Of a DNA stretch of 43,550 nucleotides, positions 6,326 through 16,619 are shown one piece after another. The DNA comes from Deferribacterales bacterium (GTDB lineage: Bacteria; Chrysiogenota; Deferribacteres; Deferribacterales; Geovibrionaceae). Where the stretch lies: NCBI GenBank assembly GCA_050253335.1, contig JBFWJG010000015.1, forward strand, positions 1 to 43,550, written 5' to 3'. The notes under the pieces were generated by a model. The model saw only the letters and a list, made by a program, of their open reading frames with translations, had not been told where the DNA came from and did no database searches. How positions within the stretch are numbered: position 1 is the stretch's first letter; the number at the start of each line of letters is the position of its first letter. The position numbers and the translations under genes were made by a program.

Positions 6326-6925
6326 CTATATTTTCAGAGAGAGAAGAGACTTTTTGCTGAAAACCTCGGTGACTGTGCCCACATGCACCACATCAGGCGT
6401 GTTTATTTTGAGGATTTCAAAATCACTGTTCTCAGGAACAAGAAGACCTTCACCGCCTTTCAGAAGGTATCTGCGGATGAACGGCCTTCTGTCCGCATCA
6501 AGCAGAAACAGGAGATTCCCGTGTCTCAGCCTCCCCTCGTCCCTCACCCATAGTGCAATGTCCCCTTCCGATATAACAGGGTGCATCGAGTTGCAAACAG
6601 CAATATGCGCATACCTGTCAGGATTGCTGAGGGTGAAAGGGGTCTTGATTATCTCGGCTGCGGGCAGAAAAATGTCAGTATCAGTCTTTTTGAAAAAGGG
6701 CTGAAACATTTCCCCTGTCCCGTGATAGATCCAGTCTGCCGATACCCCGTATTCATCCATAAGAAGCCTGAGATTGCTTTCGCTTATGAATCTGTCGCCC
6801 GATTCCCAGTTCTGGACAGATCTGTATGAGGAGTAGATCCTGTCCGCAAATTCCCTCTGGGTAAGCCCCAGAAAATTTCTCAGCTGTTTAATTCTTTTTC
6901 CGATTTCCTTGTTTTTTCGACACAT
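6326..6925 (-). CDS. XRE-family HTH / S24-like (CI/LexA-type) transcriptional regulator
   Basis: IGKRIKQLR...LTQREFAD...VQNWESG...SADWIYHGTGEMF; C-terminal NSMHPVISEGD...LVPENSDF. Confidence 0.85.
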   Translation of the reverse strand: MCRKNKEIGKRIKQLRNFLGLTQREFADRIYSSYRSVQNWESGDRFISESNLRLLMDEYGVSADWIYHGTGEMFQPFFKKTDTDIFLPAAEIIKTPFTLSNPDRYAHIAVCNSMHPVISEGDIALWVRDEGRLRHGNLLFLLDADRRPFIRRYLLKGGEGLLVPENSDFEILKINTPDVVHVGTVTEVFSKKSLLSLKI

Positions 6926-7166: not shown

Positions 7167-7240
7167 TCGGGATGGGGGGATTTGAACCCCCGACCCCTGG
7201 TTCCCGAAACCAGTACGCTACCAAGCTGCGCTACATCCCG
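7167..7240 (-). tRNA. tRNA-Pro(CGG); CCA not encoded
   Basis: Reverse complement is CGGGATGTAGCGCAGCTTGGTAGCGTACTGGTTTCGGGAACCAGGGGTCGGGGGTTCAAATCCCCCCATCCCGA. The anticodon loop is TT-CGG-GA. Confidence 0.95.
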
Positions 7241-7471: not shown

Positions 7472-8281
7472 ATGATTGGAGAAAAACTTAGAAGACTAAT
7501 TAAACGTAAAGGAATCAAGCAGGTAGAGGTATGCAGAGCCGTCGGGCTTTCACCGTCCAGACTCTCCAACTACCTCAGCGGAAGCAGAGAACCGGACCTC
7601 GAAACTCTTTCCAAAATCGCCCGCTTTCTCGAAGTTAAGCTTGATTATTTCGCCTTCGGCGACTCCATCAAAAACACCAGAGAGATCGGTGAAAGAATCA
7701 AGAAAATCAGGGAAATGAGAGGACTGACAAAGAAAGACCTTTCCGATTCCACAGGTTATGACCTGACATTCTTTGCCGCTCTTGAACTCGGCCACGGGGA
7801 ATTTGAAAGAGAAACAATCGAAACCATCTCTCAGATACTGAAATACGGCGCTGACGAGCTTATCGGAAGCGGCGATCAGACTCCGGAAGCACTTTCCGCT
7901 GTTATGGAAAACGAGGTTGTGGACTACTTCCCCGCTTCTCCCGAAACCCAGTATCATCTGGATGACATTGCCTCAGGCAGGACGGAAACTCTCAAAATTC
8001 CCTTCTGGACAGTTGTGACAGACGGAAGATTCGCACCGAAAATAAACGAAAACGAACTCGTTTTTGTTGAAAAAATAACCGGCTTCCCATCTGACAGAGA
8101 ATCAGTTCTCTTCGCCTCAGACGGAACACTCAGACTCATGCGCTGTTTTGAGTATCCGGATTCAGTGCTTCTTGCACCCGAATCAAAGGCGGGTGAACCC
8201 ATCAGCCTCAATAAAAACGAGGAAATGAAACCCGGAAGCCGCTGCTACAAAATACACTGGATTGCAAAAAAACCTGACTGA
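7472..8281 (+). CDS. Tandem double XRE-HTH regulator with degenerate S24-like C-terminal domain
   Basis: Two HTH_3-like repeats (IGEKLRRLI...LSNYLSGSREPDLETL; IGERIKKIREMRGLTKKDLS) followed by FAPKINENELVFVEK. Confidence 0.85.
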   Translation: MIGEKLRRLIKRKGIKQVEVCRAVGLSPSRLSNYLSGSREPDLETLSKIARFLEVKLDYFAFGDSIKNTREIGERIKKIREMRGLTKKDLSDSTGYDLTFFAALELGHGEFERETIETISQILKYGADELIGSGDQTPEALSAVMENEVVDYFPASPETQYHLDDIASGRTETLKIPFWTVVTDGRFAPKINENELVFVEKITGFPSDRESVLFASDGTLRLMRCFEYPDSVLLAPESKAGEPISLNKNEEMKPGSRCYKIHWIAKKPD

Positions 8282-8285
8282 CAGC

Positions 8286-8310
8286 AAGGAGCCTTCGGGC
8301 TCCTTTTTTT
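8286..8310 (+). terminator. Rho-independent terminator
   Basis: AAGGAGCC-TTCG-GGCTCCTT followed by a T run. Confidence 0.9.
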
Positions 8311-8343
8311 GCACTCTACTCATTCACATTAAGAGAATTTTTA

Positions 8344-8372
8344 TTGACAATAAGTCTATATTGATAGATAAT
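8344..8372 (+). promoter_or_regulatory. Sigma70-like promoter, probably giving a leaderless mRNA
   Basis: TTGACA, 17 bp, GATAAT, ending 6 nt before the ATG at 8379. No Shine-Dalgarno sequence. Confidence 0.6.
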
Positions 8373-8378
8373 CCCATC

Positions 8379-8900
8379 ATGATCGGGAAAAGACTCAGAC
8401 AATTGTTAGCCTCGCACAACATGACTCAGGCAGAACTATGCAGAAAAACAGGCATATCTCCGGGCAACATGTCCAATTTTATAAATGACCAGAGAAACCC
8501 CAGCCTCGAAACTCTTTCGCGGATCGCCGTGTTTTTTTCAGTTAATATTGATTCGTTCGTCTCGCAGGATGTTCCGCAGCGCACAGAGCCGAGACTTCTC
8601 TCCGATCTGGAGGAGGGAGAGGTGTTCTCTTCCGGCAGGCTGTGGGTAAAAATCGATACGGGCGCATTTTCGCCTGCATTCGGTGAAGGGACTCTCATTT
8701 TCATTGATAAAACAGCGGTAATCAGCAACAGAGACTGTATTCTGCTCTTCAGGGACAAAACACCGGAGATCTACAGGTTTTTGGAAAAAAGCAGGGGCGG
8801 GATACTGATTCCCTTCAAAAAGACAGAGATGCCGCTTGAAATAACCAAACAGAACAAACAGCGGCTTTACAAAATAACATTTTCCGCCGCGGTTCCCTAG
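8379..8900 (+). CDS. XRE-family HTH regulator with degenerate S24-like domain
   Basis: MIGKRLRQLL...MTQAELCRKTGIS...NPSLETLSRIA, paralogous to the N-terminus of 7472..8281. The ORF-track start at 8262 would cross a terminator, so 8379 is preferred. Confidence 0.85.
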   Translation: MIGKRLRQLLASHNMTQAELCRKTGISPGNMSNFINDQRNPSLETLSRIAVFFSVNIDSFVSQDVPQRTEPRLLSDLEEGEVFSSGRLWVKIDTGAFSPAFGEGTLIFIDKTAVISNRDCILLFRDKTPEIYRFLEKSRGGILIPFKKTEMPLEITKQNKQRLYKITFSAAVP

Positions 8901-9714: not shown

Positions 9715-10830
9715 TTATTTCAAAGGTATGCCGAATCTTCTGGCCGCTTCATCAAAGTCAACATCCATCCCCGCCTCAGCCGCCTCTCTGACTGTTGCCC
9801 AGTCCGCATATTTTTTCTCTTCAAAAACAAATGACGGAACTCTGCATCCTCTGCCGAAATTGAGCTCCGCTATCCACTTAACAAGGGTTGAGTTCAATGT
9901 TCCCGCAAGGGAGGCCGCAGTTTTTGCGGCTTTGATGCCGAATGTTCTGGAATGCTCTCTGGCAAGGGCGTACGAGGCATTCGAGCCTGTATCGCTGGTG
10001 AGTATCTCTCCGGTCACCGCCTTTGATATTTCAGAATTGCAGACCTCCACAAGCCGGGCGAAATCATCCGAACTCCCCCTGCTTTCAAGCACCTGAACAT
10101 TCTCCACATTAGCCAGAGCCACAGCCGCGTCATTCTGGATTCCGCTGAGCGATTCCGCAAGAACCTGCGCCCTGCGCCTTGTTTCCTCCCCGCCTTCGGA
10201 ACGGAACATGGCAAGAACGGTGGGCACACCGAATTTTTCCGCCACAGTCAGCCAGAATCGGAACCCGGCCTTCTTAAACATCCACGGCCAGTAGCATCTG
10301 GAAAGAACCGGACTGCCGTATGGGTTTTCGTTTCTGGGCATATGCCTGTGAACTATGAATTTATACTGCTCCTCAAGTCTTATGTTCCTGCCTCCGTCCG
10401 CCAGAAAAAGCGAGCCTTCCGGATCGAACACAAATCTGGCAGGATTCCTGTTAAGAAGCCTTTCCGGAATCCATTTCCCCTTTTCCTTTCTCCAGACAGC
10501 CTCCGTAACGGAAAATCCGTACTCAACAGCGGAGAGCATTTCCTCCAGCTCACTTAAAAAATTGGGCAGAGACCTGAGGCAGCGTTTCACAAACCCTGCC
10601 GTGTCCGCCGCCTCTTTTGTGGAATCCGCCGGAACTATATCCCATTCACAGCCGAGCACCCCGTGCCTGAGCTGCTCGAATTTAGCCGAGATATGGGCGT
10701 CCGTCAGCATCTCGTCAAAAACAGACAGCCTGAGACCGTTTCTGGACAAAATAACATCCGGATTCGGCATAAAATTTAAAAACGCTGAGAAATCCGCAGC
10801 AGCGGAAACGGTTTTGGTAAGATTATTCAT
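9715..10830 (-). CDS. Phage portal protein, DUF935 / Mu gp29-like
   Basis: FDEMLTDAHI, YGFSVTEAVW, NPYGSPVLSRCYWPWMFK, EKFGVP, EISKAVTGEILTS and HSRTF motifs. GGGGGA RBS directly after terL. Confidence 0.88.
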   Translation of the reverse strand: MNNLTKTVSAAADFSAFLNFMPNPDVILSRNGLRLSVFDEMLTDAHISAKFEQLRHGVLGCEWDIVPADSTKEAADTAGFVKRCLRSLPNFLSELEEMLSAVEYGFSVTEAVWRKEKGKWIPERLLNRNPARFVFDPEGSLFLADGGRNIRLEEQYKFIVHRHMPRNENPYGSPVLSRCYWPWMFKKAGFRFWLTVAEKFGVPTVLAMFRSEGGEETRRRAQVLAESLSGIQNDAAVALANVENVQVLESRGSSDDFARLVEVCNSEISKAVTGEILTSDTGSNASYALAREHSRTFGIKAAKTAASLAGTLNSTLVKWIAELNFGRGCRVPSFVFEEKKYADWATVREAAEAGMDVDFDEAARRFGIPLK

Positions 10831-10839
10831 ATTTCCCCC

Positions 10840-12237
10840 TTAATATCCTCTGAATATTGAACCCGCACTTCTTGCTTTTCCTGAATAAACACCTTCGGGA
10901 AGAGCGGTTTTTCCACCTTCACTCAGTGCCTGAGTAAGAGCATCCACCATGTCGTCATGCCTGCCGAAAGGAAAAGCAGCGGCCTCCTCAACCAGATCCG
11001 CGGCAAAGGCCTTGCCCTCCGGCAGATACACATTTCCCGCCTCCAGAAGAGGCTGGACAGCATATGCTCTTGAAATTTTGGAACCCTTAGGCTCAACGGC
11101 TATCATCCCCTGAATCTCTTTCCTCAGCGCAGAAAGAACGGCGGAGCCGTTGGCCTTGTCCTCCACATATTTAGCCCCTGCCTGCGGCCAGAGAGCGCTC
11201 AGGCTCCTCACCGCGCGCAGGGTGGCTGAAAAGTCCATCCTTTCCCTCACCATATCCGCAAGATACCTGCATGAACCTTTCACAGCCCAGACCTGCCCCA
11301 CCACATAGTCAGACCCCTCGCCTCCCTTGAAGCTCATGTCCCATGACTGGAACCAGCAGTCGGGCTCAGAGGGCAGAACTTTGTAATAGCGCCACCATTC
11401 TCTTTTAAGCACAGTTCCGGAATCCGGCGCGGGCTCCTGCATATAAAGCGCGTTCCAGACTCTGGAACCCACGGACTGCTTTATTCTGGCCAGTTCTTCC
11501 GTTCCGTATCTGGCAGGCCAAAGAGGTTCGCCGCTTTTTCTGAAAGGCTCATCCTCCGCGGCGACAGCCGGAAGTCTGATTATTTTCCACTCATCCGGAT
11601 ACTCCGCAAGCAGCCTGCCCGCCAGATCATCCTCGTGCCACCTTGTCTGCACAAGGATAATCCTCCCCTTTTGCTCCAGTCTGGTGAACAGGGTGGAGCG
11701 GTACCAATCCCACAGCTTATCTCTGTACACCGCCGATGAAGCCTGTTCCGAGTTTTTCACAGGGTCGTCAATAATGATCAGGTGTCCGCCCTGTCCGGTT
11801 ATGGAGCCTCCGGCGCCCGCCGCCAGATAACGCCCGCCTTCCGCCAGTTCCCACCTTGCGGCGGAGCGTGCGCCCTGTTTAAGCCCTCTTCCGCCGAAAA
11901 CGCCGGTAAACAGCCTTGATGCGGTCTGTTCCCTGACTCTCCTGCTGAAGCTTTCCGCAAGCTCCGCACTGTATGAACATGCAATAACGTTCAGCTTAGG
12001 GTTGCGCCCCATAAACCATGCGGGAAAACGGACAGAGGCCAGCTCGCTTTTGCCGTGTCTGGGAGGCATCATAACCATAAGTCTGTCTGTTTCACCCTTT
12101 TCCAGAAGCTCAAGCTCACCGGCGAGAAGCCTGTGGTGCCAGCCGGGGGCAAAGTCTCTGCTGCTCAGCATACAGTAGGAAATAAGCGAATCTCTGGCCT
12201 TTCTGCATGCCTCCGCTCTGGGATCAGTCTTCATCAT
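10840..12237 (-). CDS. Phage terminase large subunit
   Basis: Walker A MPPRHGKS, Walker B IIIDDP, coupling motif QTRWHEDDL, nuclease motifs SWDMSFK, VEDKANG and HDDMVDA. 12264 is an alternative start. Confidence 0.93.
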   Translation of the reverse strand: MMKTDPRAEACRKARDSLISYCMLSSRDFAPGWHHRLLAGELELLEKGETDRLMVMMPPRHGKSELASVRFPAWFMGRNPKLNVIACSYSAELAESFSRRVREQTASRLFTGVFGGRGLKQGARSAARWELAEGGRYLAAGAGGSITGQGGHLIIIDDPVKNSEQASSAVYRDKLWDWYRSTLFTRLEQKGRIILVQTRWHEDDLAGRLLAEYPDEWKIIRLPAVAAEDEPFRKSGEPLWPARYGTEELARIKQSVGSRVWNALYMQEPAPDSGTVLKREWWRYYKVLPSEPDCWFQSWDMSFKGGEGSDYVVGQVWAVKGSCRYLADMVRERMDFSATLRAVRSLSALWPQAGAKYVEDKANGSAVLSALRKEIQGMIAVEPKGSKISRAYAVQPLLEAGNVYLPEGKAFAADLVEEAAAFPFGRHDDMVDALTQALSEGGKTALPEGVYSGKARSAGSIFRGY

Positions 12238-12631
12238 CTCCGAGAACCCTTGCCGCGTCCTCAAAGGTTATGTCGAACATGTCATCCAGCGCGTTATTGG
12301 TTCTGACCGCCCCCATAATCTCCTCCGGCTTGGTCAGCCCGACATCCCTGAATGTTTTCACAGCTTTTGAGTGCGTCTCCAGATCTTTCACATTTCCGCA
12401 CTCCTCAAGCATACTGTCCGCCTTTTCTATTCCCCTGAGAGCAACATTCTGCACCGCCTTGAGAATTTTAATCCGCTTTCTGCGGCCTTCCTCGAGGCTG
12501 TTCTCCCACTTTTCCCTCTTTGCTCTTTTTCTGATCTCGGCAGGACTGCATCCGAACATCTCAGCGAGACTGTCCGGATCTGTGCTGCCGTTTTCATATT
12601 CTTCTCTGATTTTTTCCCAGTCGAAACCCAT
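12224..12631 (-). CDS. Putative terminase small subunit
   Basis: N-terminal HTH DWEKIREEYENG...LAEMFG...IRKRAKREKW, typical of TerS. Overlaps the terL start; GGGGAG RBS. Confidence 0.7.
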   Translation of the reverse strand: MGFDWEKIREEYENGSTDPDSLAEMFGCSPAEIRKRAKREKWENSLEEGRRKRIKILKAVQNVALRGIEKADSMLEECGNVKDLETHSKAVKTFRDVGLTKPEEIMGAVRTNNALDDMFDITFEDAARVLGDDED

Positions 12632-12720: not shown

Positions 12721-14547
12721 TCATGGAATGATAATTTTGAAAAGAGTGCCTTTTTCCGAAGGGACAGCTTCAAGTCGGCCTCCGAAGTTTTTCTCAATAA
12801 GCTTGCTGGAAATATAAAGCCCCATGGCCTTTTTGAGTCCGGGCACATTCAGGGGATCTTCAAGTGCGGATACACATGCGTCACGGAATTTTCCTGTGCT
12901 GTCTTCTATTTTAATAACGCAGGCTCCGTTCTCGTTTTCCGCGCGGAGGGTGATTGTCCCCACTCCGACACCGTTGGTTTCCACCAGCTCGCGGGAAACC
13001 ATGATAACGTTAAGCAGGATCTGCTTCAGCACGGAGGCTGAGCCCTTTATCTCCGTCTTTGAGGAATCGCTGAAGAAAACGAAGCCTATTCCGTCCTTCT
13101 CGTAATAGGTGGAAACAAAGGAATGCACCTCATCAAGCAGCGGCATTGCCTCGAAGCGCTCATCGGCTCCCTCATCCCTGGAGACAAAACCGAGAAATCT
13201 GTCCACAGACTCCTTCATGACGCCTATCTGCTCTCTGCATGTGCTTATGCATTCATCAAGGTATTTTTCGTCCTCTATGCCGGAGGATATCTCCTCCTTT
13301 ATGTTCTGCATGTTTATATGCACAAGGCTGAGGGGCTCACGCCAGTGGTGGGAGACGGAAGCCACCATCTCCCCTATGGAGTACAGCTTCATCTGCTGAA
13401 TCATAAATTCCTTCTGCTTCTCAAGCCTTTCCGCCTCATCCTCTGATCTCTTTTTCAGGTCTTCCTTGCAGTTTTCAAGACGTTCAAGCACGCTTTCCGT
13501 TTGTTCAAGGTGCCTGTTGTACTCATTCACAAGCTCTTTAAGCTCGGTCACATAAACACCGCGCTCACTGAGGCTTATCCTCTTTGATTCTCCGAAAAGG
13601 CGCATGGCCTCAGAATAAGGGATCTCGAACCTGCGGCGGAAAATTCCGAACACATAGTACATAAACAATGCGGAGAACAGGATCGTCATCAGCGCAAGCA
13701 TAAGCGAACCCTGCTTCATGCGATTGATCCCCTCGGGCTTCAGAACCGCCTTTATGCCGATTCGGCTCCATGGGAAAAGCTGTTCGGCCTCGCATATGAA
13801 CACGTTATACACAGCATAGCCTCTGAAAAAGGTGCCGTCCGAGGCACTCCGGAAAGCTTCAAGGTCCTCCTGAGTAAAAGCCTCCCCGTAAATAAGAAAA
13901 GACTCCGCGGCTGTTTCCCCCAGAGAGTAAATGCCTATACCGTCAAAAAGACTGCTGCCACCCTGAATTGTGCTCATTCTGGATGCTATTTCATCCGCAA
14001 ACGAATACTCGGTCATAACCGCCGCGTACTTTCCGTATTCCGGAATCCACTCAAAAAACATAATTTCCGATGAATTTTTTGCCTGAGAATATCTTATACG
14101 CATAATTCCGCCGGTGCCCTTTCTTGCTCCGTCAAAATCCTCCGCGGACGGTGCAAGCGTCCAGCTGTCTGCCGAACCTGCGCTTCTTCCGCTGAAAGCC
14201 TTGCGCCCCTCAGCGTCAAACACAATTATCCCGTATTCCCTTCCGGAAGAGGCCGCGAACTCCTCTGCCAGTGATTCGGCGCTTTTTCCGTCTGCCGGAA
14301 AGTTCTGAACAATATCCCTCATATGATGCCGGGAGATATCCGACACAGCGTCCAGCCTGATGCTGAATGTTTCCGCCGCCGATCTGACAGTTTCTTCCAG
14401 AAGCCCTGCAAGACTTTTATAGGTGTCCTCAGTTTTGGAGACTGCAAGCCTCACGCTGAGGTAATGATCTGCAAGCACGAGACATACAAGGAAAAAAAAC
14501 AGAAATACAAAACTGTGAACCAGAAGTTTTTTCAGCGGAATCTTCAT
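12721..14547 (-). CDS. Membrane sensor histidine kinase-like protein with degenerate ATP-binding domain
   Basis: Two TM segments and H-box SVSHHWREPL. The N, G1 and G2 boxes are altered (LLNVIMVS, EDSTGK, KKAMGLY). Confidence 0.75.
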   Translation of the reverse strand: MKIPLKKLLVHSFVFLFFFLVCLVLADHYLSVRLAVSKTEDTYKSLAGLLEETVRSAAETFSIRLDAVSDISRHHMRDIVQNFPADGKSAESLAEEFAASSGREYGIIVFDAEGRKAFSGRSAGSADSWTLAPSAEDFDGARKGTGGIMRIRYSQAKNSSEIMFFEWIPEYGKYAAVMTEYSFADEIASRMSTIQGGSSLFDGIGIYSLGETAAESFLIYGEAFTQEDLEAFRSASDGTFFRGYAVYNVFICEAEQLFPWSRIGIKAVLKPEGINRMKQGSLMLALMTILFSALFMYYVFGIFRRRFEIPYSEAMRLFGESKRISLSERGVYVTELKELVNEYNRHLEQTESVLERLENCKEDLKKRSEDEAERLEKQKEFMIQQMKLYSIGEMVASVSHHWREPLSLVHINMQNIKEEISSGIEDEKYLDECISTCREQIGVMKESVDRFLGFVSRDEGADERFEAMPLLDEVHSFVSTYYEKDGIGFVFFSDSSKTEIKGSASVLKQILLNVIMVSRELVETNGVGVGTITLRAENENGACVIKIEDSTGKFRDACVSALEDPLNVPGLKKAMGLYISSKLIEKNFGGRLEAVPSEKGTLFKIIIP

Positions 14548-16619
14548 TTCCCCGCTCCGTTGTCCAGCCCGCAGGCGGCAGTATCTTTGTTCAGGTATAT
14601 ATCGATACTGAGCCCTTCCCCTGAGCCTGATATATCCACCGTTCCCTTCATAACGGAGCTGAAAAGCTCAACAGCCATATAGAGATTGAAATGCTTCATA
14701 TTTTCCGCTGATTCAGGTGAATATGGATCGTCAACGGCTTTAAGCTCTTCCGCGCTCATTCCGCCGCTGTTGTCCTGTATGTTTATGCGGACAGAACCGC
14801 CTGTGTCGTAAAGATCCACAGTTATAACCGGAGTAAAGTCTTCCCCCGCCGAGGCTTTTTTCTCCTCAAGCAGCCTTTTGCTGTTGTGCAGAACGCTGAG
14901 AACGGCGAGTTTGAATTCCGCCGGATAACCGCATATGGTGAAGCCGAAACCGGCGCATTCCGGCACGCATTCCGGATAGCCCGCCCCGCAGCATCTGTCC
15001 ATATTTTTCAGCACATCCACCGAAACGGGCTGTTCATACCCCCGAAGACGGCAGGTGAACTTCAGCCTGATCCCCTCGGAAAGCATATGAGGCGCCACCA
15101 TGCGCATCGTGTCCTCAAGGGTCTGACGGAGATCGAAAAGCTTTCTCTCAAGGGACGGCCTGAAGAAATCCCTAAGACCCTCAATGGTGGATGACATGTA
15201 CAGAACCTGTTCCATGCATTCCGAGGCTATCTTCTCCATCCGGTCTCTGTTCTCTCCAAAGTCCGCAGTCATTGCTGATATATCATCCACATACTGCCCC
15301 AGAACCTTCAGGGGGAGCTGCCAGAGGTATGCCACGGAGTGGGTCATTTCCCCCATTGTGGCCAGCATCGACTGGCGTATTATCAGCTGTTCGTTGGCTT
15401 TTCTTCTGGATACTTCCGCCTTGACCCTTTCTTCGAGTTCTTCGTTGAACTTCTCTGCATAGGAAAGAAGCTCCTGCTGCCTTTCCAGATGGCCGTTATA
15501 AAGCTCTGCCAGAGCCGCCAGATCCTTCTCGCCGGAAAGGATGCTTTTCTCAGTTATTTTTTCCGTTTTCCTGACCCTGTCCACCATTATTCTGAAAGGT
15601 GTTACAAAGCCTGTGCTGAGCCTTCTGTAAAAAATTACCAGTGCAAAAACCACAACAGCGGCGGAAAAAAGCTTGATGAAAAAACTCAGCAGGCCGTAGC
15701 GGCGTTCGTCTGTCGTGTCAAAAATAATGCGGTAAACTATCCTGTGGTCAAGATCCTTCAGTTCCTCTGCGGAATCAGGAACACGGGCAGTAATATAATA
15801 GCTTTTGCTTGTTCCCGTGAGCAGGCTGCCGGAGGATTTTTCCAGCATTCCGCCGTGTTTTATGGTTTCAAGAACGGTTTCTGCGTCCGTGTCTTTCTCG
15901 GGTTCATCGGAACTGATATTAAATATAAGGTTCCGCCCTCCGTCACTGCTGCTGAAAACAAGGATCGCGTCAACCGATTTTATATATTCGGAAAGCGCCA
16001 CTATCTTCTCCAGCCTTTCACGCACAACCTTCAGATCGGCAAGGAAAAGCGCGGTCTGGAGATATATGTCTCTCTCTTTTATGTAGGACATTGTGTATGC
16101 GCGGAGAACCCTACCTGAGCGTTCATATACCGGATAATCCAGCAGAACCCCGCCCTTCTCCCTCGCCCTGCGCAGGGTTTCAGTCGCGTTCGGGAAGCCG
16201 CTTATGTCAAGCCCCAGCTCCGTGGGGTAGGTGGTATTGAAAATAACACCTTTGCCTGTGAGCAAAGCTATCTCTATCTCTGTGTTAAGTTCTTTTTCAT
16301 GCTCGGTTTTTTTGTCCATGAGAAATTCATATGAAGGAACCCCGTATTCGGCTATGAAGCTGTGGAGCTTCTGATGATCCTCAACCATATGCATGCGCAG
16401 ATGGGTATTGGCAGGGGACCGGAACTCCTTGTAATAGCCGATATTCTCATCGACCATCCGCACGGCCTCCGCTGTTATTCCCCGGACGCTGAGCTCAAAG
16501 TTCCTGTAGTTAAGAAAATAGTTAATAAGAATCAGGGATACGGCCGCAAACACGAGAATCAGACAATTGACCGTTAAAAGCCTGTGGAGGCTTACCCCTT
16601 TCTGTTCACCAGCAGACAT
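14544..16619 (-). CDS. Membrane sensor histidine kinase-like protein lacking the phospho-acceptor His (pseudokinase)
   Basis: Two TM segments. The H-box reads SVAYLWQLPL where paralogues have AHQWxQPL. DNSGG is present but there is no GxGxG box. Confidence 0.75.
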   Translation of the reverse strand: MSAGEQKGVSLHRLLTVNCLILVFAAVSLILINYFLNYRNFELSVRGITAEAVRMVDENIGYYKEFRSPANTHLRMHMVEDHQKLHSFIAEYGVPSYEFLMDKKTEHEKELNTEIEIALLTGKGVIFNTTYPTELGLDISGFPNATETLRRAREKGGVLLDYPVYERSGRVLRAYTMSYIKERDIYLQTALFLADLKVVRERLEKIVALSEYIKSVDAILVFSSSDGGRNLIFNISSDEPEKDTDAETVLETIKHGGMLEKSSGSLLTGTSKSYYITARVPDSAEELKDLDHRIVYRIIFDTTDERRYGLLSFFIKLFSAAVVVFALVIFYRRLSTGFVTPFRIMVDRVRKTEKITEKSILSGEKDLAALAELYNGHLERQQELLSYAEKFNEELEERVKAEVSRRKANEQLIIRQSMLATMGEMTHSVAYLWQLPLKVLGQYVDDISAMTADFGENRDRMEKIASECMEQVLYMSSTIEGLRDFFRPSLERKLFDLRQTLEDTMRMVAPHMLSEGIRLKFTCRLRGYEQPVSVDVLKNMDRCCGAGYPECVPECAGFGFTICGYPAEFKLAVLSVLHNSKRLLEEKKASAGEDFTPVITVDLYDTGGSVRINIQDNSGGMSAEELKAVDDPYSPESAENMKHFNLYMAVELFSSVMKGTVDISGSGEGLSIDIYLNKDTAACGLDNGAGK

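Follow-up and report, generated by a model that had tools for sequence, protein, structure and literature searches.

Why would a bacterium keep the genes of a phage DNA-packaging motor among genes of its own? We asked this of three adjacent genes, for a small terminase (TerS), a large terminase (TerL) and a portal protein, at positions 9715-12631 on the minus strand of the window, a 43,550-bp stretch of DNA that is the entire contig C15 of a draft genome (2.58 Mb, 142 contigs, 99.94% complete) from the family Geovibrionaceae, phylum Deferribacterota. The relatives compared were the members of this family in Geovibrio, Limisalsivibrio, and the Seleniivibrio(-like) and Denitrovibrio(-like) genera. 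Judged from gene content, conservation and order, the trio is probably the packaging module of a particle system that derives from a domesticated phage, is vertically inherited, is split between chromosomal loci, resembles a gene transfer agent (GTA) and is of independent origin.

According to the list of open reading frames (ORFs), exactly three ORFs fill the interval (Table 1). TerL matched the Pfam families Terminase_6N (PF03237, 4e-15) and Terminase_6C (PF17289, 1.4e-18), both above the cut-offs, and the PHROG family phrog_38 (1e-125); by these matches it is a large terminase of the Terminase_6 type, with a predicted N-terminal ATPase and C-terminal RNase H-like nuclease. Its orthologues keep, identical or nearly so, the segments PPRHGKSE, LI(I/V)DDP and TRWHEDD, which we take to be the Walker A, Walker B and coupling motifs of the ATPase, and SWDM(S/T)F, Y(V/I)EDKANG and DDMVDA, presumably the acidic motifs of the nuclease. 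The portal protein aligned to PF06074 (Portal_Mu, DUF935) over profile positions 2-336 of 336 (E 2.9e-88; 296.9 bits against a cut-off of 23.9). TerS matched the families phrog_1206 (6.9e-10), phrog_2606 and phrog_509 via residues 3-80, the N-terminal part only. GGGGAG precedes the ATG of terS, terS overlaps the listed TerL ORF by 41 nt, and 9 nt separate the TerL stop from the portal start. In two related genomes (G002 and G003) a TAA lies upstream of the real TerL start, which suggests that TerL of the window begins at its internal ATG, with an overlap of 14 nt.

The first-pass annotation, made from the window alone, had described three tightly coupled, intact ORFs with all TerL motifs, and the ORF list, Pfam, PHROG, the motif alignment and the GGGGAG ahead of terS bear it out. 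The host genes that it placed within about 100 bp on either side are likewise there: a histidine-kinase-like gene terminates 89 bp upstream of the trio, and a 108-aa exported-looking ORF and a PilZ gene begin 64 bp downstream. A Pfam scan of 35 window ORFs returned no capsid, protease, tail, lysis, integrase or transposase gene, as had been stated; the other 32 ORFs scanned belong to ribosomal proteins, chemotaxis, c-di-GMP signalling, kinases, SMC, FtsY and oxidoreductases.

TerL is a single-copy gene in its own genome and is present in all 15 other species genomes of the family (16/16 with its own); the other seven families of the order gave two weak, unrelated matches (26-32% identity) among 45 genomes. 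Portal_Mu was found in 16/16 family genomes versus 1/47 from other families of the order, and an intact terS orthologue (29-81% identity) stands upstream of TerL in all 16. TerL identity to the window is 83-86% within Geovibrio, 64% in Limisalsivibrio and 56-59% in the two remaining genera, and the trio genes are uninterrupted in 15 of the 16 species-level genomes, in four genera. Geovibrio and Limisalsivibrio have in common a 16-gene synteny block around the trio, in the order ChaN-like, transglutaminase, molybdopterin enzyme, two kinases, trio, exported protein, PilZ, three helix-turn-helix (HTH) genes, DUF2062, ParA and CheW. In the other two genera the flank is a different one, shared between them, with ROK in 7/7 loci examined; the only annotated locus (G013) adds Fic, SMC and enoyl-CoA hydratase. 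No other phage genes adjoin the trio in either setting. Graded identity, synteny, the grouping of the short portals in one clade and their shared C-terminal loss (see below) together indicate that the trio is vertically inherited within the family.

The trio is also under constraint. Pairwise Nei-Gojobori comparisons within Geovibrio gave dN/dS ratios of 0.04-0.14 for TerS, 0.04-0.06 for TerL and 0.03-0.06 for the portal gene, which are rough values since synonymous sites are near saturation (pS 0.57-0.76). The same script returned 0.015-0.086 for the host genes flanking the trio, a range that leaves out PilZ, and 0.045-0.20 for 12 genes (g1-g12) of a second locus described next. The GC content at third codon positions (GC3) of the trio, 0.57-0.60, lies within the range of host genes in the window, 0.46-0.65.

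Outside the window, on contig C4 of the same genome, we found a second locus of about 17 tightly packed genes (g1-g17; Table 1) by searching the genome with the proteins of a viral contig, L056; the matches on C4 were to the protease, at 42% identity, to the capsid protein, at 40.5% along its whole length, and to the small gene that follows it, at 35%. Besides the capsid genes, the locus holds a probable lambda-like tail-tip set, g7-g12, and an endolysin-like gene. That the genome has no capsid gene was first suggested by misses of PF05065 (Phage_capsid, 0/16 genomes) and PF10124 (Mu-like_gpT, 0/5), and was overturned by phrog_29 and PF03864; calls of orphan terminases should therefore be checked genome-wide with several models.

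The second locus follows the trio through the family. The phrog_29 major capsid family occurs in 16/16 family genomes, and g8 in 16/16 family genomes and 0/47 from other families. Among nine loci from four genera, g1-g4 and g7-g11 were present in 9/9, and g5, g6 and g12 were detected in 4/9, 8/9 and 8/9; a divergent TPR gene precedes the locus in 9/9 loci examined, and the flanks include this gene, a radical-SAM gene and a chemoreceptor. Genes g13-g15 are present in Geovibrio (3/3 loci) and Limisalsivibrio. Identity in g9 is 18-21% between distant genera and 52-64% within Geovibrio. The distance from TerL to the capsid gene is 12-13 kb in the Denitrovibrio-like genus (4/4 genomes), 30-31 kb in Geovibrio (3/3 with both on one contig) and 38 kb in Limisalsivibrio, and the two lie on different contigs in the Seleniivibrio-like genus (7/7 genomes). 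In Geovibrio thiophilus the two loci share a strand and keep the phage order; the portal and protease genes are separated by about 27 kb that hold host genes, among them those for ribosomal proteins, CheW and ParA.

The tail-tip assignment of g8 comes from its predicted fold. In the AlphaFold model (pLDDT 66.5), a beta-domain can be superposed on proteins of tail tips and baseplates and on tailspike anchors, namely Klebsiella K1 lyase (Z 10.8, root mean square deviation 1.9 Å over 78 residues), the phage Chi tail tip (Z 9.8), the JBD30 baseplate (Z 8.6) and T5 Dit (Z 8.1), which is a moderate match to a common domain and not proof of role. Foldseek returned only low-TM rows for the model, and the g8 and g9 sequences matched nothing among solved structures below E 0.07. 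In a protein atlas the nearest clusters to g8 were unnamed viral proteins, a lead only. The C-terminal domain of g8 (profile 193-310) recurs in a conserved ORF of about 950-966 aa elsewhere in the genome, with orthologues in four genomes of Geovibrio and Limisalsivibrio (G001-G004; E 1e-16 to 2e-21).

The two loci share a likely source. The nearest viral portals (45-46% identical) lie on IMG/VR contigs, the longer ones 34-37 kb. L056 (IMGVR_UViG_3300017593_001763) has, in order, terS, TerL, portal, MuF-like, protease, decoration, other genes, a major capsid protein of phrog_29, a g4-like gene, further genes and a neck gene. In a second contig, L152 (IMGVR_UViG_3300028030_000027, 42.9 kb), homologues of g1-g4 and g7-g11 follow one another as they do in the host; the contig runs from protease, decoration and major capsid protein through a g4-like gene, Neck1, major tail, chaperone, tape measure (902 aa), g7, g8, g9, g10 and g11 to holin and endolysin, with other genes ahead of the g4-like gene, between g8 and g9 and before the holin. 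By gene content and order, the host set thus appears to be the late region of a Mu-headed siphophage minus MuF, Neck1, tail tube, chaperone and tape measure. A major tail protein (phrog_807, 1.7e-19) was found only in Limisalsivibrio, between g5 and g6, which suggests that the ancestral domesticated element still had a tail tube and that the other genera lost it.

The portal is altered as well. Family portals are 366-397 aa long and all end in FGIP(L/V); the nearest outside portals (41-48% identity) have 402-458 aa, with about 40-50 extra C-terminal residues, and the solved Mu-type portals 8rka and 9khx (512-526 aa), to which the PF06074 profile can also be aligned, align only over residues ~58-425 and extend about 100 residues further. 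This C-terminal loss is common to all four genera. A quick tree placed the short portals in a single clade (SH-aLRT 99); its ingroup had been picked by similarity rank to the query, which is partly circular. In Mu, the portal C-terminus is trimmed during head maturation, and by analogy the short portal of the host may resemble the processed Mu portal.

True Mu-like prophages in the family are a separate matter. Those with portals of ~500 aa and MuF are sporadic and were found in 4/16 family genomes; MuF (PF04233) likewise occurs in 4/16, the window's own genome not among them. Baseplate_J was present in 2/5 family genomes tested and the PF04984 sheath in 0/5, and the Mu transposase C-terminal family PF09299 had no matches, with none in control genomes either. 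No transposase, integrase or replication gene was recognised beside either locus. A classification of the two loci as an intact or mobile Mu-like prophage was rejected, as they are separated by host genes, fixed in the family and without an adjacent transposase.

These results recast the first-pass annotation in part. It had called the trio stand-alone, which holds within the window and fails genome-wide, where head, tail-tip and lysis genes lie on contig C4. Its proposal that the trio might be one locus of an undescribed split GTA gains support from the second conserved locus, found in its own genome and in all relatives. Its preference for domestication over decay agrees with presence in 16/16 genomes, the conserved host context and dN/dS of 0.03-0.14, far from 1. 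A search for the trio in relatives in the same context, as it advised, recovered the genes with host synteny in all 16 family genomes; the advised search for orphan Mu-like clusters yielded the locus of head, tail-tip and lysis genes, and the only baseplate cluster in the genome proved sporadic and not co-conserved.

If the trio belongs to such a GTA-like system, an ancestor of the Geovibrionaceae would have captured it from a Mu-headed siphophage and passed it on vertically since, with the system split over at least two chromosomal loci, the trio and the C4 locus. TerS would act as the recognition subunit, TerL as the ATPase-nuclease motor and the portal as the ring, while the C4 locus would supply protease, decoration, capsid, connector-like and tail-tip proteins and, in Geovibrio and Limisalsivibrio, the endolysin-like and small proteins. 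On some signal, a fraction of cells would express both loci; proheads would assemble on the portal, TerS and TerL would cut cellular DNA and pump it into them by a headful mechanism, the tail-tip proteins would attach, and lysis would release the particles, as in GTAs. GTAs typically take up host DNA essentially at random, in amounts too small to encode the agent itself. With a combined length of about 14.7 kb (2.9 + 11.7) and 12 to more than 100 kb between them, the two loci here could not both fit into one small headful.

According to the part of PMC11841831 available to us, GTAs look like remnant phages made up of packaging and structural genes and tend to be distributed over multiple loci. 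In the Geovibrionaceae we likewise found phage-derived packaging and structural genes without adjacent replication, integration or transposition genes, inherited vertically with the host clade under purifying selection (16/16; dN/dS 0.03-0.20). The same part of PMC11841831 describes the RcGTA-type agents (Rhodobacter capsulatus, Caulobacter crescentus) as sets of phage genes for packaging, head, tail and lysis that lack genes for replication and integration and are vertical, constrained and at more than one locus, all of which applies here. The system differs from RcGTA in its host phylum, Deferribacterota, and in having the packaging genes apart from the head genes; it lacks a recognisable tube or tape measure in most genera, its TerS seems to keep a DNA-binding-like N-terminus, and its function is putative. 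The RcGTA head is HK97-type, unlike the Mu-type portal (PF06074) and lambda gpE-type capsid (PF03864) here, which points to an independent origin. Division of genes between chromosomal loci is also described for VSH-1 of Brachyspira hyodysenteriae (Stanton et al., cited in the accessible part of PMC11841831), a likeness by description only, not by sequence, and in a different host phylum.

The phages themselves, represented by the Mu-headed siphophages L056 and L152 and the portals 8rka and 9khx, share with the host set the same families, the same order from terS to lysis and 25-49% identity. Their genomes are, however, contiguous (37-43 kb) and include MuF, Neck1, major tail, chaperone, tape measure and holin genes, all missing from the host set save for the major tail protein of Limisalsivibrio. 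In the host set, moreover, 12-38 kb or more of host genes intervene between the parts, and the portal lacks the phage C-terminal tail. Satellites, among them the capsid-forming phage-inducible chromosomal islands (cf-PICIs), likewise have terminase, portal and capsid genes but no complete phage genome; they are mobile, integrase-bearing and sporadic. Unlike them, the Geovibrionaceae set has no integrase nearby, keeps its synteny and is fixed in 16/16 species.

TerS matched no Pfam family, and HTH hits were marginal (E 0.03-0.07); among solved structures, no match fell below E 0.07 by sequence or below E 1 with Foldseek. Three short helices open its AlphaFold model (pLDDT 70), followed by a long hairpin of helices and an acidic, disordered tail; this is the general layout of phage small terminases (PMC11841831, in the part available). 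A predicted TerS-TerL complex reached a median score of 0.54 (0.00 for the best of three controls), which is weak, as passes of 0.60 or below are; the partners had pLDDT values of 69 or more, and agreement between runs covered 67% of contacts or more. The calibration, in which 116/157 solved pairs and 2/215 mismatches reach the mark, holds roughly here, own alignments having been used. The predicted complex is a mild confirmation of a small-terminase identity that position and PHROG matches already made likely.

Several observations weigh against a GTA-like particle system. In known GTAs the small terminase has no detectable DNA-binding domain (PMC11841831, again in part). TerS of the trio seems, from its model and its PHROG matches, to keep at its N-terminus a DNA-binding-like three-helix region, which corresponds to the DNA-binding end of the phage TerS profiles, unlike those agents. 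In phages, an HTH-like N-terminus of TerS confers site-specific recognition of pac, and the N-terminus here hints at sequence-specific rather than random packaging. Many proteins of the second locus have no assigned role, and g13-g15, of which g14-g15 are the lysis genes, were not detected in the examined stretches of the Seleniivibrio-like and Denitrovibrio genera. The phrog_807 tail tube was not found in 4/5 genomes searched, the tape measure phrog_973 was found in 0/5, with no control genome matching either, and the conserved set contains no Neck1 or MuF homologue; this apparent lack raises the question of how a DNA-delivering tail would form. The nearest relatives of TerL and portal differ: the closest phage TerL is that of Faecalibacterium phage FP_Brigit (51%), and on the viral contigs with the closest portals (45-46%) TerL is only 24-26% identical, where detected. 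In one Denitrovibrio-like draft metagenome-assembled genome (G010, locus L016), TerL has a single in-frame TGA, with terS and portal intact, which could be a sequencing error or a real loss. Lastly, the system is a candidate, with expression, particle formation, choice of DNA and delivery to recipients inferred from its genes.

Some of the same facts could be read differently. The conserved particle genes might be a resident helper or packaging factory for specific DNA, such as a capsid-less 13.5-kb mini-Mu on contig C1, or serve another host function that requires capsids, filled or empty, such as altruistic-lysis defence. The HTH-like N-terminus that TerS seems to keep fits such a role, and the mini-Mu has Gam, protease and Neck1 homologues (~85.0-93.6 kb), Neck1 being a gene that the conserved set is without, a lead only. 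We nevertheless consider this reading unlikely: the mini-Mu is not connected with the trio by a pac site or by any sequence in common, and retention in 16/16 genomes needs a benefit to the host, whereas a parasite's helper would not obviously be kept. Within the GTA-like reading, it is more doubtful still that the cargo includes mini-Mu elements without capsids, like that on contig C1.

The first-pass annotation had also considered a repurposed DNA translocase, with motor and channel working alone and without a capsid. The window holds no capsid gene, the portal has lost its C-terminal tail, and trio and capsid locus lie on different contigs in 7/7 genomes of the Seleniivibrio-like genus, all of which would suit a translocase. 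A stand-alone translocase is now very unlikely because the capsid genes are co-conserved: protease, decoration, major capsid and tail-tip genes share the 16/16 profile (g8 with 0/47 outside) under similar constraint, and in textbook phage biology terminase and portal have no known action other than on a procapsid. Least credible is a decaying prophage remnant without present function, for instance of a phage integrated near a tRNA-Pro with cI-like repressors: the tRNA and three cI/LexA-like genes do lie 0.8-3.4 kb from the portal and sporadic true Mu-like prophages occur in 4/16 family genomes, but decay of the trio is excluded by low dN/dS (~0.03-0.14), invariant catalytic motifs, host-like GC3 and the lack of att-like repeats, with genes intact in 15/16 genomes of four genera, conserved synteny, and identity of 54-59% between the most distant genera that, with the conserved flanks, excludes recent independent insertions or near-clonality.

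A bolder form of the GTA-like reading, which we put forward tentatively and hold somewhat less likely to be right than wrong, is that this is the first GTA-type viriform of the Deferribacterota, an independent domestication of a Mu-headed siphophage that was fixed before the split of the four genera, had its modules scattered, shed MuF, neck, tube and tape measure in most lineages and kept a DNA-reading TerS. To our knowledge, only a handful of independently evolved GTAs are known: RcGTA-type, BaGTA, VSH-1, Dd1 and VTA. A further independent case in a deep-branching phylum would add evidence on the ways in which phages become domesticated and on how frequently this happens; it would reveal which modules can be done without (here the tube, tape measure, MuF and portal tail) and would test whether loss of DNA binding by TerS is a general GTA trait. 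Should particles form, this would be a structurally new, almost tail-less GTA with cargo perhaps chosen rather than random. Two cultured hosts with complete genomes, neither of them pathogenic, are at hand, Geovibrio thiophilus and Denitrovibrio acetiphilus.

The literature searched, which takes in few subscription journals and much of it in excerpt, returned no work on phage-like elements of the genera Geovibrio, Denitrovibrio, Seleniivibrio and Limisalsivibrio and no relevant connection between GTAs and Deferribacteres. Among the papers listed, as far as their available text goes, those on newly described GTAs were alphaproteobacterial, reviews or on unrelated subjects. The 'prophage' passages in the accessible part of PMC6896113 concern Deferribacter autotrophicus, and the genome paper of D. 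acetiphilus does not contain the words 'phage', 'prophage', 'terminase' or 'virus'. Within the bounds of that literature, the new findings are a second locus, its conservation together with the trio across the family, the phage ancestry and an account of which modules were lost.

Table 1. Positions of the packaging trio, the second locus and other features; positions without a contig or locus prefix refer to the window
Feature	Position	Strand	Description
terS-like, first gene of trio	12224-12631	-	135 aa; PHROG small-terminase families
TerL	10840-12264	-	474 aa as listed; 465 aa from ATG at 12237; Terminase_6N/6C, phrog_38
Mu-type portal, short form	9715-10830	-	371 aa; Portal_Mu PF06074
Membrane proteins upstream of terS	12721-16619	-	two, large; weak HisKA/HATPase_c matches, below Pfam cut-offs
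cI/LexA-like HTH gene	8262-8900	+	Pfam
cI/LexA-like HTH gene	7472-8281	+	Pfam
tRNA-Pro	7167-7240	-	only Rfam match in window
cI/LexA-like HTH gene	6326-6925	-	Pfam
Second locus	C4:16596-28337	+	g1-g17
g1	C4 locus	+	protease, 239 aa, phrog_976 (5.7e-24)
g2	C4 locus	+	decoration protein, phrog_49
g3	C4 locus	+	major capsid protein, PF03864 (7.7e-48), phrog_29
g4, g5	C4 locus	+	small proteins, no family assigned
g6	C4 locus	+	no family match reported
g7	C4 locus	+	phrog_4408
g8	C4 locus	+	putative tail-tip protein, by predicted fold
g9	C4 locus	+	556 aa, fast-evolving
g10, g11	C4 locus	+	phrog_24905 for g10; phage g11-like protein also matches phrog_24905
g12, g13	C4 locus	+	no family match reported
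g14	C4 locus	+	endolysin-like, phrog_894 (1.6e-10), weak Peptidase_M15
g15	C4 locus	+	small protein, 69 aa
g16, g17	C4 locus	+	no family match reported
Recurrence of g8 C-terminal domain, within an ORF	C7:47391-47723		see text
Major tail protein, Limisalsivibrio (G004)	L145:8118-8816		phrog_807
Tail module, own genome	C16:35078-41523 (L050:7079-13307)		see text
Mini-Mu	C1, ~84.6-94 kb		see text
Neck1/tail completion homologue	C1:84994-85419		in mini-Mu
Gam homologue	C1:90442-90831		in mini-Mu
Head protease homologue	C1:93238-93624		in mini-Mu

Around the trio, the description of a host-signalling setting fits the flanks; it left unmentioned a tRNA-Pro and three genes for cI/LexA-like repressors, HTH proteins whose S24 peptidase part is full or weak, 0.8-3.4 kb downstream of the portal. 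The repressors may regulate the trio. Two of the three are paralogues with a common 70-nt stretch at 70% identity, and the gene for a double-HTH repressor is unusually conserved (94-95% within Geovibrio, 66% to Limisalsivibrio); in the Seleniivibrio-like and Denitrovibrio-like genera such genes are not linked to the trio. A search around the trio for repeats that could be att sites or Mu ends returned short chance-level repeats and this paralogous stretch only. A scan for promoters and terminators gave nothing convincing upstream of terS, so that in Geovibrio the trio may be co-transcribed with the kinase-like genes ahead of it, two large membrane proteins.

Elsewhere, a 'viral' contig of 15.9 kb, L151 (IMGVR_UViG_3300042273_000919), carries the TPR gene and g1-g12 in Denitrovibrio-type order and no homologues of phage-only genes, and is probably a piece of a Geovibrionaceae chromosome filed among viruses. 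The window's own genome also has a tail module that runs off the end of contig C16, for which neither a sheath nor a second terminase was found there. This module was rejected as a partner of the trio because it is sporadic, being absent from three genomes (G003, G008 and G013), with weak matches (34-38%) in a G004 prophage. It comprises a Baseplate_J wedge, baseplate proteins, a 798-aa fibre and a fibre-assembly chaperone, and adjoins a DNA methyltransferase gene.

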